64,000 nt of DNA from Centroscyllium fabricii. Its lineage: Eukaryota. A model generated the notes under the pieces. The model was not told the DNA's origin. It did not search any database and saw only the letters and a program-made list of their open reading frames with translations. Positions 15,686-53,094 of the stretch are shown piece by piece. The stretch lies in contig JBNRSN020000021.1 in the NCBI GenBank assembly GCA_051313645.2, forward strand, positions 35,402,001-35,466,000, written 5' to 3'. Numbering within the stretch: position 1 is the first letter of the stretch; each line of letters starts with the position of its first letter. The position numbers were made by a program, and so were the translations under genes.

Positions 15686-17882
15686 GTAAGCACTCAGGGT
15701 GTCACTTTTATTCTCTTTTTAGGGGTGGGTCTGAGGCCAAGTTATTGATGAGACCATTTCATCTGTAGAGGTTCCTCTAAAACCTCATCACCCAATGACA
15801 CCTCAAATCCTTTGTCTTGGTGCTTGGATGAAAGCCCTCCCCAAAAAGCTGGGTCCATTACTTCATCCAATTTATCTCATTGTTTAATCTTTCTGAAGGT
15901 TCTTCCTTTGGAATTGGTGTCTTATCACTCTTGTTTCTATCCTCCTTGACCCAGCAAGTACAAGGCCCGACCCTGTCCCTCTTTAATCAGCAGGCCCAAG
16001 CCAGAGTTGTCGCTCATTAGCCAGTTGCTATCTCACCTTCATTTCGCAAATGGCCCATTCTAAGATGGATACCTCAACCTTCTCAAGTTCCTTTCATTCT
16101 ATGTCTTTTCCTAATTAACTTTTAATTATCTTTGCAAGCAGTTCTGCTAAAAATAAACTCCAAATTCTATCTGTAGAGTTTATAATATGGTTATTAGCAC
16201 TAATGGAAGAAACATAGGGGGAGATTTTGATGTCCCCGTCAGGCGGGGTTTTGGGCGACCGTGAGGTGAAAATTGGAAAATTTTGGTTCCCGCCCAAGCC
16301 CGCCCATTCCCCGGCGGTTTTGAATTTTTGGGCGGCCTTTTTCCCTGCCCCGAATCTTTCCCGCCGGCGCCCGGAGGGGATGGTTGTTAAGGTCGTTAAG
16401 GGCCCTTAATTGGCATCTGTAATCCCATTTTAAGGGCCCTTAGCCATTTTCAGGTGTTTCACGGACAAAACCCGCCAAGCTAAACCCCGTCAGGTGAAAC
16501 CCTTGTGCGAACTCACTCGGACTGCTGAGTATCTGTGTCCGGTCACTCAATGAAGGCTCACATTTAATCAGCCATTAATCGCTTCCGCAACCACATTGTT
16601 GTCTCAGTCCTGGGGATACTTGCAACAGGCTTCAGCACACCTGTGGAGGTTGCATCCTCAAACCCTTCTGCAGTGTGACCTGGGAAATCACTCTCACTTC
16701 CCCCGCCTCAGTCAGTGCTTCCTCAGCCACGGCTGCCAGCACAGCCATGGGAAACATTTTCTTCCTTCCCTTCTTGGGATTACATGATCTCCACCAGGAG
16801 CAGATGCGGCTACAGCAGCAACAGCAGCAGCCACACCAGGAGCCACCTCACCAGCAGCAGCCACACCAGGAGCCACCTCACCAGCAGCAGCCACACAAGG
16901 AGCCTGACGCTCCTGTGTTCCCTCCAGGGGCAGCATGGGCCAGAAGTCATCGGTGCATCGAAGGACGTCGCCGCAGAAGATACCCCCCAAATCGGGTCTA
17001 CAGAGTCTGAGCCACGTACCTCAACATGAGTGAACGGCGGTGCCAAAGGCGACTCCGACTTTCCCGAGAGGCAGTCACAGACATCTGCACCATGTTGCAG
17101 CAAGAGCAGGAGCCCAGAACACCAGGTAGACTGGCTCATTCCAGGGATCAGCAGCCGACATCAGCGTAATCTCCCAGTCGGCCGCACACTCCTGCATCAC
17201 CCAGGTAACCGATGCCCTCTTTGCCCGCGCCCACAATTTCATCCATTTTACCACGGATCGCGCAAGTGTGAGGGCCCGAGCGATTGGAATGGCTCGTCTG
17301 GCAGGCTTCCCAAGGGTGCAGGGCATCATTGACTGCACACATATGGCCCTTAGGGCACCCAACGACAACCCAGTAACTTTTCTCAACCGCAAGGGCTTCC
17401 ATTCACTCAATGTTCAACTGGTATGTGACCACAGGAAGGAGATTTTGCATGTGTGTGCCAGGTACCCTGGCAGCTGCCATGACTCCTTTGTCCTGCGCCA
17501 ATCAACCTTGCCTATGCTCTTCACACCGCCGGACCAGCTTCCGGGGTGGCTACTTGGAGACAAGGGCTATCCCCTCAGGACTTGGCTCATGACGCCGGTC
17601 AGGAGGCCAGTGTGGTAATCATATTACCAGTGTATATAGTTAGGTTACACCACAGACCAGTGTGTATAGTGGCTTGGTGTGTTGTACATAGAACACTGTT
17701 GTGAGGTCAGGTCAGCCACACCTCTATCTCCTCCCCTCAGGTGGGAGCCTTATAGGTGAGGTCTGCCCTGCCCCCAGTCATTCTGTACCCGATGTTCAAC
17801 TGGAGACTAGCTCCATCTTTAAGTTAATAAAAGCCTATAGTTAAGGTAACTACTCGTCTTTGTATTATTGACGATACGTCAA

Positions 17883-17896
17883 TTTTATTAACTTAA
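17883..17896 (+). promoter_or_regulatory. Non-tRNA primer-binding site complementary to the element's own LTR (putative self-priming site)
   Basis: ttttattaacttaa is the exact reverse complement of LTR 17819-17832 ttaagttaataaaa; no TGG start. Confidence 0.8.
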
Positions 17897-17904
17897 TTTT
17901 CGAA

Positions 17905-19004
17905 ATGGAGAGCGGCGCTGTGAAACCCGAAATGTTGGATATCAATCCTCAAGAACCAGACGGCGCCAACACTTTTAAACATTGGTTCAGCCTTGTCGAG
18001 GCCTACATGGCGACCGCAAAGGCGACGAGCGACGGGGACAAACTACACGTCCTCTCGTGCAGAATCAGCAGCCGGGTGTACTCCTTCAGCCGCGGCATCA
18101 CAACGTACACGGAGGCCGTGAAGAAACTGAAGGAATGCTACTTGCGCCCGGCCCACTCGGTCTATGCCAAACACGTGCTGGCGACCAGACAACAGCGGCT
18201 CAGTGATTCGAATGAACAATATCTGTTGGCGCTTCAAGCACTCGCTCAGGCCTGTGACTGCCAGCCACGAATGGCGCAGGAGGAGACGAAGCTCCTCGTT
18301 CGAGATGCCTATGTGACTGGAATCAGGTCCAACCAGGCCCGCCAGCGGTTGCTGGAAAAGGACACTCTATCACTGGAGGAGGCGATCTCCATCTCTAACG
18401 CAGTGGACGGAGCGCGCCGCAGGCTAGAGGTGTATGGCGGCCAAGGCCCACACGACACCCTCGATCCCTGGGTGGCCACACGACAGGTCGAGAACCCCAC
18501 AATGGCAGCAGCAGCTGCGAAGACGCCGTCGGAGCGAAGATGCTACATCTGCGGCCAGGGACAGCACCCGCGAGTGAAATGCCCCGCGAGGAACGCGACC
18601 TGTGAGAGATGTGGCAAGAAAGGACACTACGCCAGGGCCTGCAAATCGGCCCCAGCGCCCAGCTCCAGATACAACAGCGCGGCCTGCAAGAGTTCCAATG
18701 TCATCCCATGGCCTAAGGTAAGCTGCTGTTGCAGCGCGACCCAGCAGCAGTCTGGGGGTAGATCACAGGCGCCTCCGTCTCCCATCCCTGTATGGCAGAG
18801 GCCGACCGTGCGCACGGCACGGGCACCGCCACGCCAAAGACGGCCGCGGCCGGCCATGGGCGACCCCCCAACGCCGGCACCTCGCCCAGCGCGGTCCACT
18901 GCGTGTGAATCACGGGCGCCGCCACCGCAGTCCACCGCGTGCAAACCACAGGCACCGCCATCTAATCCACCGCGGTGCGCTGCGTGCGAATCACGGGCGC
19001 CGCC
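17905..19004 (+). CDS. gag: Gag with two zinc knuckles, open until the nested LTR
   Basis: CYICGQGQHPRVKC and CERCGKKGHYARAC; LLVRDAYVTGIRS motif. Confidence 0.9.
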
Positions 19005-19304
19005 TGTGATAAACCACTGTTTCCCACTGTTTCCATTGTATATACCCACCCTATGATGTATCTCTGTAATCATGCTTATATCCATAACCTGTATCACCTG
19101 TTGTAAGATTACCTGGACATGCCCAGGCTGGCTCCGCCCGTGACTCCTCCCTCCCAGGAGGAGGTATATAAGAGGCCGTCTCCCATCCCCCGGCCATTCC
19201 TGGGGACGGTCGACTACCTGGTGCATGTCCACCATTTAGTGAATAAAAGCCGCATTGTTTCACCCTTCTAACTACTCGTCCACGAGGTCGTTATTTCGGT
19301 CACA
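19005..19304 (+). mobile_element. Solo LTR, Gypsy family B, nested in gag
   Basis: tgtgataaacc...ggtcaca; TSD ccgcc (19000-19004 / 19305-19309); TATATAA and AATAAA; similar to 51566-51867. Confidence 0.92.
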
Positions 19305-22242
19305 CCGCCATCTTGTCTTCAGCAGCCAGCCATGTGCGACTCCCTGGTGCCGCCATCTTGTCTTCAGCGGCCAGCCATGTGCGGCTCCCCGGCGCCGCCA
19401 TCTTGTCTTCAACGGCCAGCCATGTGCGACCCTCCGGCGCCTCAAGCAGAACGACCAGTCACAACCCCCGGGGGAACGGCCAGGTAGAAAGGGAGAACGG
19501 GATCATCTGGAAGGCGGTCAGCCTGGCCCTAAAGTCCAGAGGCCTTCCAATGTCCCGTTGGCAGGTAGTCCTCCCAGACGCGCTCAACTCCACCCGCTCT
19601 CTGCTGTGTACGGCTACAAACGCCACACCTCATGATCTATTATTTTCCTTCCCCAGGAAGTCGACACTCCCACCGTGGCTCATGATGCCGGGGCCGGTCT
19701 TACTTAGGAAACATGTCCGCGGCTATAAGACCGACCCCCTGGTGGAAAAGGTGCAGCTGCTGCACGCCAACCCGCAGTATGCCTACGTGCAGTTCCCGGA
19801 CGGGCGCGAGGACACAGTTTCCATCAGAGACCTAGCGCCCGCCGGGAGCACTAGAGCAGAGCCCCTGGTCGAGCCTCAGCCCGTCCAGCCACCGCCTACC
19901 GAACACTGGCCTGCATACCGACCACCATCTACCGAATACTGGCCTACATACACGCACACACCGGGGCCCCCGACTCTATCGGCTGAGGACCCAGGGCCAG
20001 ACGCCACACCACATGCACGGTTGCCGGAGGACCCGACCCCGCCACCACAACTGGAACCAGCGCCACTACCGGAATCCCGGCAGTCTTCACGACAGACTCG
20101 ACCACCGGAGCGACTCATTGAGAACTGCTGATACGGACACATAAAAAATTTTTTTTTTTGCACTGCCCTCACTGATCGGTTCTGTTCCATTCACCCCACC
20201 GGACTCATTTTCAAAGAAGGGGTGAATGTGGTAATCATATTACCAGTGTATATAGTTATGTTACACCACAGACCAGTGTGTATAGTGGCTTGGTGTGTTC
20301 TACATAGAACACTGTCGTGAGGTCAGGTCAGCCACACCTCTAACTCCTCCCCTCAGGTGGGAGCCTTATAGGTGAGGTCTGCCCTGCCTCCAGTCATTCT
20401 GTACCCAATGTTCAACTGGAGACTAGCTCCATCTTTAAGTTAATAAAAGCCTATAGTTAAGGTAACTACTCGTCTTTGTATTATTGACGATACGTCAGCC
20501 AGCCAATGAGGCTGAGGAGAACTACAACTCCGCACACATCTCCACCAGAAGCATTATAGAGCACACCATCAGCTTGCTCAAGATGCGTTTCAGATGCTTG
20601 GACAGATCAGGTGGAGCCCTGCAATACTCCCCAGCCAGGGTCTCCAGAATGGTAGTGGTTTGCTGTCAACTTCACAACATGGCCCAGCGCCGTGGCTTGT
20701 AACATCCTGACCAAGACCTGCCTCCTCACATACCGTCCTCAGATGAGGAGGAGGAGGAAGAGAAGAGGGGAGCTCATCCTTGCAAGATTTTCTTAGCCTA
20801 CTCAAGCCAGCTTGTGCTACTCTCCTCATCCTAACAGCGCATCCTCACTGACACACTCCAATCAGTTCCACAGCTCATACCTGCATGAGTCCCACTACTG
20901 TAACAACATCTGGGTGGGGGAGTGTAATTCTGGGGCTGCCAAGTGCCTGTGACTGCTTTCTGCGCTCGCACATGCACCCATGCCCCTGACGCACCACAGA
21001 TTTCTTTGATGCACATGGTCCCATCCAAACATCCATCCATCCATCACATGCAATAATGAACACAGAAACAATAAAGGTTGCAACTGAAACATGCTGTTTA
21101 ATACCGACATTAAGCAAACATGGCCACATGCATGGTTGTTCAAGTGATGACCAACACTTATGAATCACTGCATTAATGCTGTCCCAGCCATCTCAGCTGC
21201 AGACATGCAGGGTTAAACGGTCAAAATGTCATTATCAGCAATGCTGAACCTCAGCCAGTCCAGTTTTGAGCTTGCAAGCTCATATCCATTGTCAATCATG
21301 TTCCCCCCCTCTCACGTGGTGCCCCTCCCTTTTCAAGAGTGGCACATATTCTGACCAACCATCGACTCTGCTGTGGGGGTCACAGTGAAATCGGGGTCCC
21401 TGATCAGCCAATCAAAACGGACATCCCTCCTGAGGTCGTCAACAGCTTGATTTGAAAAACAGAGAACAACAGCAGCCATGTATAGAAAAATTATGCAGGC
21501 GCTGTCGGGTTTCTTTATGCGGGTGGGGCTGCTGTGTTTCAAACTTTCCTGGAGGTGCTTCAGGGCAGTGTACCCGGACATGAGGCAGGAGCTGTGGAGG
21601 GCACTGAGGGACAATGTCTGGTGGGTCTTCACCCACCTGATCTTGTTTGATGTGTGAGAGCTGAGGCATGCTGGCACCATGGCTCCTTGGCCATTCCATC
21701 AGGGTCAGGTGCTGTGAGGGGCCAGCTGCAGCCAGATGATGTTGGATGCGTGGGTACTTTGGCCAGTTGGCCCATCTTTTCTTTGCCCACCACCATCCCT
21801 TTAAAGTTTTGTTTGTGTTAAAGTTCAGCCCTGAGGCTTGTTTGCTGGTGTTGCGAAAACATCAGGTGGTTTGTTCAGTTAATCTGGTCATCATTTGGAC
21901 CACACATCGTTCATACAGCCCCTCTGTTCTCTGGTGTGCGTCACCATGAAGGTAGGCCGATTTCAAGGACCTTCACTCTTAGCCATTGAGCTACAGTCTG
22001 TTATTGAAACTCATGCGTCTTGCTGTAAGTCCTTCTGCCATGTTGCATCTGCATCCTTGCATATCTGTGAGGCCTGCCCGATTGCTGTCCAGCCTGCATA
22101 AGGCATCAATGTGGAAGGGCCATTCGCAAGATGTCAGACATGACAACTGCATCAGGTGCCACCTGGAGTAGTCTGCTGTCTGACCAGTGCTATAGACACC
22201 TGAATGTCTGTTACACTAACACCCAAGTGACTCTCGTTGTGC

Positions 22243-51485: not shown

Positions 51486-51565
51486 TAGTGGGGATCCCAC
51501 CCATTTCCCACATCTTCAGGAAAATTGACCCCGTTGAGTTTTTGATGCCCTTTGTGTGACACTTA

Positions 51566-51920
51566 TGTGGTAAACCACTCTTTCTTGTATATATATCCAC
51601 CCCATTATGTATATATTTGTATTATTGTAATCGTACTATTCACCATGTTGTGCCATAGTTCATTGTGTGCGATTACCTGGACATGCCCATGCTGGCTCCG
51701 CCTGCAACTCCTCCCTCCCGGGACCAGGTACATAAGCGGCCGTCTCCCATCCCCCTGCCATTCCTGGGGATGGTCGACTAGCTGGTGCATGTCCACCTTT
51801 AGTGAATAAAAGCCGAATTGTTTTATCCTCTTAACTACTCGTCCACAAGGTCGTTATTTCGGTCACAATTTTATTCACTAAAGGTGGACATGCACCAGCT
51901 AGTCGACCGTCCCCAGGAAT
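51566..51920 (+). mobile_element. Family B LTR (51566-51867) followed by a 52-nt inverted copy of its own R region
   Basis: 51869-51920 is the reverse complement of 51760-51811 (51/52); no TSD. Confidence 0.92.
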
Positions 51921-53094
51921 AATTGCCCCATCTCTTTCAATTTTATTTGCACACAATTTTCTTCTCCTGCCACCAAAACTTTTCTAGATCTGTCTGTGCT
52001 TGCACCTTCAGTTGTGAATAAACATTCAAATTAAGCTAGGTCAGAGAACTGAGTGATTTGTCCTTGAGATTCAGACAGCATTTGGACCAATTCTAAACGA
52101 GTTCGAACTGACTTGCACCTGATGAGGAGAATTTGCCTGTCAATTATCCCCCAGCCAATGAAGAAACAGATTGATTGGTCATTTGTAGCATCATCTGTTT
52201 GTGAGATGTCATTGGTGGACAATCATTGATACATTTGCCAACATATAAAGACACTACATTCCAAAAATAATTAATTGTGCAAGCGCTTTGGGATGTTTCA
52301 GCATGACAATGTGCTCTGTAAATGTGGAACAGTACTGAAAAACAACTTTTGACAGTTATAGATGCCAGACCATTTGGTATCTGCCGATCTTTGTTTCAGC
52401 AGTGCCCAACCTTCTCTCCCATATTTACCCAGACAGTGCGTTTTAATGCCAATTTGAGAAAATGAAACAGTATGATGTCTTAATTTCCCATCGCTATGGG
52501 ATCTCTAGATGAGATTGTTGAGTCAATGCCAGTTGTTGCAGCTGAATTTGAGGATGGTATTGTACTGTGGGCATGTGTCCCATGTCTACTGGATTGAGAC
52601 TGGCCAAGCTCAAAGCTGTCATGCCATCTGCCTGCAAGGGGTTCCTACGTTCATTCTTATTTTTCGTTTTGTTGTTATTTTTCCCAAGTGCAAGCACATC
52701 CGCCTGTCTGTACTAACCTCTTTAGTCAGGAGAGTGTGATCCATCTCTATCTATAATCAATTCTTGGCTTATTGACTTACCAGGAGGGTAACATCTGAGC
52801 AGTGTTTGACCATCCGGTCCCACAAATTCTAGAATTGCCTCGAATTGATGTGCTTGGTACCAGCCCCTGAACTTGACCGCTCAACCACATTTTGATCATT
52901 ATTGTCTAGTAACTCCTCAGTGATGAAGCTTTTGGTATGTCTCTGTGCTGGAGGTGATTTCTTCCCCTGGACAGTTTTTGCTCCCTTTATACAAGCACAG
53001 AGTGAACCCCCTTGAATAGGGTAGGCCAATCTAAGTCAAAATTGCATCTGCCAGTCAAAAGTCCTATGTTTCCAGTACTGCAGCTCCCCTAAAC

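Follow-up and report, generated by a model that had tools for sequence, protein, structure and literature searches.

An LTR followed by an inverted copy of its own RNA 5' region in Centroscyllium fabricii, a likely fossil of self-primed reverse transcription

Here we describe an insertion in the genome of Centroscyllium fabricii in which the LTR of a Ty3/gypsy retrotransposon is followed by an inverted copy of the first 52 nt of its predicted RNA. The insertion lies in a 64,000-nt stretch of contig JBNRSN020000021.1 (the window, to whose first base all positions refer). We consider it probable that this copy represents plus-strand strong-stop DNA that copied its self-primer as far as the primer's 5' end and subsequently entered the chromosome at a break, with no help from integrase.

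The focal LTR, compared with 23 intact 5' LTRs of family B, occupies 302 bp of the forward strand (51566-51867, TG...CA), ends in CGGTCACA at 51867, and shows 5-7 differences from the intact copies, suggesting a recent insertion. One spacer base, an A at 51868 that is likewise present in intact elements and in a second family (family A), separates it from a tail at 51869-51920. Read as its reverse complement, this tail agrees with 51760-51811 at 51 of 52 bases, and the agreement extends on neither side. These features, together with the absence of a TSD, confirm what had been reported in an earlier reading of the letters (the sequence-only reading). The first 14 nt of the tail (51869-51882) are the PBS of intact elements, while the following 38 nt (51883-51920) are the reverse complement of RNA nt 1-38 and are absent from intact elements. 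The putative self-primer, RNA nt 1-52, would correspond to 51760-51811, and its last 14 nt (51798-51811) form the arm that pairs with the PBS of intact elements and ends in AATAAAA (51805-51811). The tail stops on the A of an initiator-like CCATTCC (51758-51764), 31 nt behind a TATA-like box TACATAA (51729-51735) that reads TATATAA in a sister LTR, again as previously noted; its end lies at nt 51 or 52, the final T being equally attributable to the target. The single mismatch falls at 51771, which is T in the LTR and C in both the tail and the sister LTR.

The target is an old repeat, whose left half lies at 51552-51564 (relatives L131 and L133) and whose right half lies at 51921-51968. Relatives of this repeat read GTGACACTT-TCCTTT-AATTG, whereas the focal site retains GTGACACTT, gains an A at 51565 and resumes at (T)AATTG, leaving colinear target halves with 1 nt of microhomology and about 5 nt lost, a size that is approximate given relatives 68-90% alike. 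The extra A is absent from the aligned relatives and is possibly a remnant of an unprocessed cDNA end. Features of break-captured cDNA (no TSD, a small deletion, microhomology and cDNA-only bases) are present in the focal copy, and the earlier suggestion that it was captured without two-ended integration agrees with the presence of end-joining marks and the lack of integrase marks. For comparison, the sister LTR is a solo family B LTR at 19005-19304 (forward strand) flanked by a 5-bp TSD, CCGCC, as expected of a normal integrase product. It lies within a 45-bp tandem repeat inside a family A element (17611-20497; 5-bp TSD GCCAG) that is deleted from gag to the end of integrase. The 5' end of this element (17611-17896, forward strand) comprises the LTR (17611-17881), the spacer A and a 14-nt PBS that pairs with a stretch of its own LTR ending in AATAAAA (17819-17832), with a predicted +1 at 17780.

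Elements of family B retain the machinery expected of the Ty3/gypsy group. A near-intact copy (L122) of 4,624 bp carries 302-bp LTRs that agree at 300 of 302 positions and have TG...CA ends, a polypurine tract and a 5-bp TSD, and encodes gag followed by protease, RT, RNase H and integrase in Ty3/gypsy order (L121 and L124 were checked likewise). The best solved match is Ty3 (7e-58), and no chromo family was matched at E <= 1 in five proteins. Using the sister family in L121 as query, RT-RNase H sequences 72-83% identical were found in the sharks and rays Scyliorhinus, Hypanus, Narcine and Mobula, which hold the closest named RT relatives, and sequences 57-66% identical in a cnidarian, a mussel, a tunicate, a sea cucumber, a nematode and unnamed records. 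In all 24 loci read (L007-L030), the intact leader consists of the 5' LTR, one A, a 14-nt PBS and the gag start; the PBS pairs over 14 nt with the LTR stretch ending in AATAAAA, at RNA nt 39-52, and does not start with TGG. The expectation that intact family B elements carry only about 14 nt of complementarity therefore holds, also across the 7,499 normal junctions found genome-wide. Both arms of the duplex covary across four LTR families in the genome, with single mutated copies breaking one pair in 3 of 14 rows. Judged by the duplex, its covariation and the lack of TGG, the PBS appears to pair with the element's own 5' LTR and not with the 3' end of a tRNA. Leaders of families A and B both fold with the PBS duplex, while their inner helices differ and the fold overall is no more stable than that of shuffled sequences (z about -1.2). 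This layout is shared by a relative with 60% protein identity (L253), whose duplex spans 13 bp and likewise ends in AATAAAA; the sequence (L253:1-4023) is a circularly permuted, eukaryote-type retrotransposon with an LTR of about 120 bp and comes from a record labelled as a bacterial genome, where it is probably misbinned host DNA. No LTR pair was found in 21 metagenome loci examined for further relatives, a search of viral contigs returned nothing, and genome contigs yielded one relative.

To place the focal copy in context, the whole 7.2-Gb genome was searched with a 27-nt pattern representing an LTR, the spacer A and an extended tail, a pattern blind to tails under about 20 nt. The extended junction gave 155 matches and a control pattern none, such that about 2% of LTR-PBS junctions are tailed (155 vs 7,499). 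Tail ends were read in 100 of the 155 junctions, namely the exact matches that come first in contig order. Twenty of these tails end before nt 48, 38 end at 48-54 (27 of the 100 at 51-53), seven end at 55-245 and 35 run to the start of the LTR, a class that includes ends at 198-207, where the alignment stops at a U3 indel. One duplicate (L034, of L002) and five copies with shared landing sites (L098, L100, L116, L060 and L127) were dropped; with the latter removed, the collapsed set holds 60 non-full tails, of which 34 end at 48-54, 19 below and 7 above. Against uniform ends this pile-up has p = 1.6e-35, and the density of ends falls from 0.68 per nt below the wall to 0.037 above it. Ends scored at 53-54 gain a G or GG, which the landing template supplies in 11 of the 12 that map to the element, suggesting that the true limit is nt 52. 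Independent copies do share a common end, an outcome that the sequence-only reading had called decisive, although this applies to the 38 tails at 48-54, and the 62 ending elsewhere count against a 52-nt primer; the 35 that run through U3 would in any case require a second step beyond such a primer alone.

The same wall recurs in family A, whose LTR sequence is different. Among 30 of 89 loci read (29 exact matches and one match with one mismatch), two independent tails end at nt 53 and eight are shorter, while none ends at 54-102, three end at 103-124 and 14 are full. By their matched letters, one-mismatch matches in this family look like mostly normal gag starts of other subfamilies. Nt 53 of family A is the A of a TCATTCT initiator with a TATA-like box about 30 nt upstream, and the halt of a plus-sense template at an initiator A in both families most plausibly marks the 5' end of an RNA. 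Such a template, beginning at +1, would be best explained as RNA, most likely the 52-nt self-primer copied to its 5' end, and the tail ends point to 51760 as the base at which transcription probably starts. The sequence-only reading had taken the focal copy to fix the start site; ends do pile up at 51760, but the start is deduced from tail ends. Its further claim that the copy fixes a primer cut after AATAAAA goes too far, because the first 14 nt of the tail are identical to the PBS in the genome. The same DNA would result wherever the 14-bp duplex was cut, so that the tail sets bounds on the cut site. A cap-derived C after nt 52 was also considered and rejected, there being no excess (3 of 11 exact-52 ends). 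One copy whose tail rejoins U5 (L104) has a single extra C at +1, possibly a copied cap.

It is very unlikely that the tails arose by DNA fold-back or as inverted LTR duplications, with an RT pause or a later deletion falling at 51760 by chance. Some tails do reflect fold-back or annealing to plus-strand DNA, since long ones agree with their own LTR in U3 length class, and palindromes are unstable; but the end points are not random, contrary to the counter-case named in the sequence-only reading, two families of different sequence both have the wall at an initiator A with a TATA-like box about 30 nt upstream, and several exact-52 junctions show no microhomology. The focal mismatch, which lies at a CpG, had been offered as further evidence, and does not serve as such: positions 40/41 differ from the copy's own LTR in both directions and in all tail classes. 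The idea that it reflects a different template was rejected, short and full tails being equally different from their own LTR (1.9% and 1.3%, p = 0.30, which does not separate the classes). In one copy (L050), which has a TSD, the tail breaks off at nt 51 and resumes some 43 nt further on, past the TATA box, from where it follows U3 in antisense as far as the start of the LTR; this suggests that long tails pass through a 52-nt stage.

We regard as extremely unlikely the combined alternatives that the 14-bp duplex only hides the 5' copy of the poly(A) signal while another RNA primes, or that the focal junction is an assembly error. Retroviruses are known to hide a 5' poly(A) signal, every shark family seen has AATAAAA at the end of its upstream arm, and such hiding may well be a second role of the duplex. 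As a sole role it accords poorly with a PBS that adjoins the LTR and lacks TGG, with tails that continue the PBS in register into R, and with two more distant relatives (L145:2688-2755 and L161:689-752; LTR ends not defined) in which a 14-bp duplex precedes a gag-like start and AATAAA lies on the other, downstream arm. With respect to assembly, none of the contigs listed formally bridges the focal junction; contigs of two samples, possibly the source of the assembly, nevertheless agree with it over 29 nt of tail into unique flank without a difference, under a bridging rule of 31 nt, and an error would have to account for 155 copies, many with TSDs.

A rather unlikely alternative, which would still map the start, is that the primer is trimmed to about 14 nt, and that the copied PBS overhang anneals to the uncut 5' end of a second packaged RNA and is extended to +1. 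Such a scheme yields the same wall, accounts for the 98% of normal junctions, and finds a parallel in the 35 full and 7 intermediate tails, in which overhangs re-prime on plus-sense templates. It also predicts bare 14-nt tails on genomic DNA, and none was found when 30 of the 33 candidate loci were read (they comprised 23 normal gag starts, 2 jumps into gag and 5 long tails belonging to another subfamily), a test of moderate power as only tails with A or C next are visible; among longer tails, in contrast, 9 of 100 are genomic captures. Furthermore, a second cut at nt 38/39 would be required, of which there is no sign, and in uncut RNA nt 39-52 would already be paired with their own PBS.

What the tails were joined to indicates which strand carried them. 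In 33 of the 38 copies at the peak the tail was joined to element sequence, in sense orientation in 31 of the 33 (27 of 29 in the collapsed set, p = 1.6e-6), so that the jumping strand would be the plus strand, landing on minus-strand DNA and several times near the gag start. Deletion elements formed in this way often integrated normally: a 5-bp TSD surrounds 11 of the 20 with extended tails, equivalent to 11 of the 13 with a recognisable 3' LTR, while 7 of the 20 lack a recognisable 3' LTR and 2 have one but no TSD; shorter tailed deletion elements add further TSD cases. Similarly, among full tails with a complete left LTR, which form palindromes, 11 of 19 show a perfect TSD around the LTR, the A and the inverted U3/R, indicating that integrase accepted two U3 ends. 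Tails are found in addition behind 3' LTRs. L195 is a full-length element whose right end is an inverted U3/R behind the 3' LTR, with a TSD around the whole, and L197 and L199 are full-length, TSD-flanked elements with three LTRs, where pol is the landing site of the tail that follows the 3' LTR; strong-stop DNA is thus one origin of tails, and the right end of full-length cDNA another.

These three elements favour a reading in which the same 52-nt primer was used, but the focal copy represents the right end of full-length cDNA; this cDNA would have kept its primer, been inserted abnormally and later been reduced to one LTR by LTR-LTR recombination. Solo LTRs are common in the genome, such recombination can give the same end structure, and about half of Tf1 cDNAs keep a 3' copy of the PBS (PMC11042837). 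We nevertheless consider this origin unlikely for the focal copy. Only 3 of 30 collapsed sense-landing copies (p = 4e-5; 3 of 34 uncollapsed) lie behind a polypurine tract, compared with a share of about 45% for two-LTR insertions among all insertions (62 LTR ends were paired among the first 100 of one contig, sister subfamilies included), which favours strong-stop DNA as the source of most. Moreover, 9 of the 100 read tails are captures without TSD and with genomic DNA on both sides, and none of the nine has element sequence upstream of its LTR (0.55^9 = 0.005). Five of these nine have AA before the LTR, compared with 1 of 24 normal LTRs (p = 0.003), AA being the two bases that come after the polypurine tract. 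AA ends, the lack of upstream element sequence and target deletion together fit unprocessed short cDNA captured by end joining. The proposal that the focal copy derives from strong-stop DNA accordingly stands as the likelier one, though strong-stop DNA is not the only source of tails, since tails also end full-length cDNAs.

Several individual copies extend this picture of what tails can become. Landing sites are shared among copies at different insertion sites (L072, L098 and L100; L099 and L116; L053 and L060; in family A, L167, L171, L186 and L187, the last two of which have a flank in common and may have arisen by duplication), and it seems that tailed deletion elements, with a leader hairpin of 52 bp, went through further transposition as non-autonomous elements. 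In L104, L110, L049, L092 and the family A copy L191, the tail rejoins U5 within its final 8-70 nt and so regains a normal right end and a TSD; a jump of this type is also seen as a joint from 51920 to 51849 in sequencing runs X1 and X3. The palindrome L061 has flanks that are mutually reverse complementary and lacks a direct TSD, the inversion reaching into host DNA, possibly through hairpin opening or as an assembly artefact. Large inverted duplications are present in L074, L075 and L200 (= L033), whose tails extend by up to 2.7 kb in antisense orientation across the polypurine tract or gag-pol. L102, inserted in a LINE, has an apparent 7-bp target duplication with AA before its LTR, and the left end of L032 still carries some 6 nt of the polypurine tract.

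In the mechanism that we propose, the RNA would start at 51760 and fold such that nt 39-52 pair with the PBS. It would be cut once, at or just before nt 52 or within the end of the duplex, and the 52-nt piece would prime minus-strand DNA while its 38 unpaired nt hang off. A self-primer would carry no block of the kind provided by a modified tRNA base, and with nothing of that kind to stop RT, plus-strand synthesis would copy all 52 nt and run off at the 5' end. The resulting 38-nt overhang would prevent normal second strand transfer and could meet one of three fates: a jump onto minus-strand DNA, giving deleted elements with TSDs; annealing to R and extension to a second U3 end, giving palindromes with TSDs; or end-joining capture, giving the focal copy. 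The other 98% might escape the overhang through a second strong-stop round after primer removal, as in the Ty1 model, which is a guess by analogy.

To our knowledge, experimental proof of self-priming exists only in fission yeast, self-priming elsewhere being predicted from complementarity, mostly in chromoviruses. The Tf1 self-primer consists of the RNA's first 11 bases and is cut by RNase H (PMC7175516), self-primers lie at RNA 5' ends in Tf1/sushi chromoviruses (bioRxiv 10.1101/2022.12.06.519325; PMC4600332; PMC5341516), and the plant elements Tcn1 and TAR are predicted to self-prime (PMC6317226). As in these systems, the shark PBS lies beside the 5' LTR and pairs with the element's own R instead of a tRNA, the primer would be cut from the RNA 5' end, and, as in Tf1, its copy can stay at the cDNA's 3' end, here in L195, L197 and L199. 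Unlike the fully paired 11-base primer of Tf1, only nt 39-52 pair here, over the poly(A) signal, with 38 nt left unpaired; the paired stretch would thus not be the extreme RNA 5' end, given a start deduced from tail ends, and the integrase C-terminus carries no chromodomain, in contrast to Tf1/sushi chromoviruses. With respect to the three-duplex 'pretzel' leader of Tf1/sushi, the leaders of families A and B are predicted to form the central duplex, with inner helices that differ, and the evidence is of another kind, genomic fossils here and biochemistry for Tf1.

The exit routes of the tails likewise have parallels. Tf1 insertion is possible without integrase, and cDNA ends with single-stranded primer copies can enter the genome without integrase or TSD, as proposed here; that route uses Rad52 annealing at PBS-like sites, mostly old Tf2 copies, whereas the focal copy, with its microhomology and small deletion, is more end-joining-like (PMC11042837). 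In Ty1, strong-stop DNA in which the primer is over-copied is regarded as a dead end (PMC2939329), and LTR-region cDNA with extra cDNA-only bases is captured at breaks, as in 40 of 56 3' LTR inserts (PMC11372161). The focal copy resembles these products in both respects, but the extra bases of Ty1 are 12 nt of tRNA seen in laboratory assays, while here they copy 52 nt from the RNA of the element itself and are fixed at more than 100 sites in the germline of a vertebrate. As regards classification, Cigr-1, Mag and MolGy are named clades (PMC6238403), and in contrast to Gmr1-like gypsy elements, in which integrase lies upstream of RT, integrase here follows RNase H.

Each step of the proposed mechanism appears to have a precedent, and the element is well explained as one that works like Tf1 while differing in primer position and chromodomain, which would make it a new variant of self-priming. 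Our literature search returned no paper on self-priming at a poly(A) signal, on self-priming in sharks or on genomic primer fossils, with most subscription papers, Repbase notes and supplements outside its scope. More tentatively, and with slightly less than even confidence, we suggest that a non-chromoviral gypsy clade extending from sharks to marine invertebrates evolved self-priming apart from Tf1/sushi, with a capped primer of about 52 nt cut at the poly(A) signal and one helix that both primes and hides the 5' poly(A) site, and that its fossils record failed second strand transfers, palindromes included, and map the transcription start without RNA.

Together, more than 100 germline fossils offer direct sequence evidence of which RNA was attached to the cDNA, in a vertebrate element without a chromodomain and with a geometry, a long unpaired 5' tail and a cut at the poly(A) signal, that differs from known self-primers. 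The read-out could be applied to any assembled genome by locating an LTR end followed by a PBS and inverted R and counting where tails stop, and would yield the base at which transcription starts, a maximum for primer length and the spectrum of errors in second strand transfer (about 2% here), making start site and primer length testable. The fossils further show how such elements form deleted derivatives that spread and palindromes with two U3 ends. If the proposal is true, failed second strand transfers have left a record in the genome that can be counted, with palindromes that integrase accepted among them.
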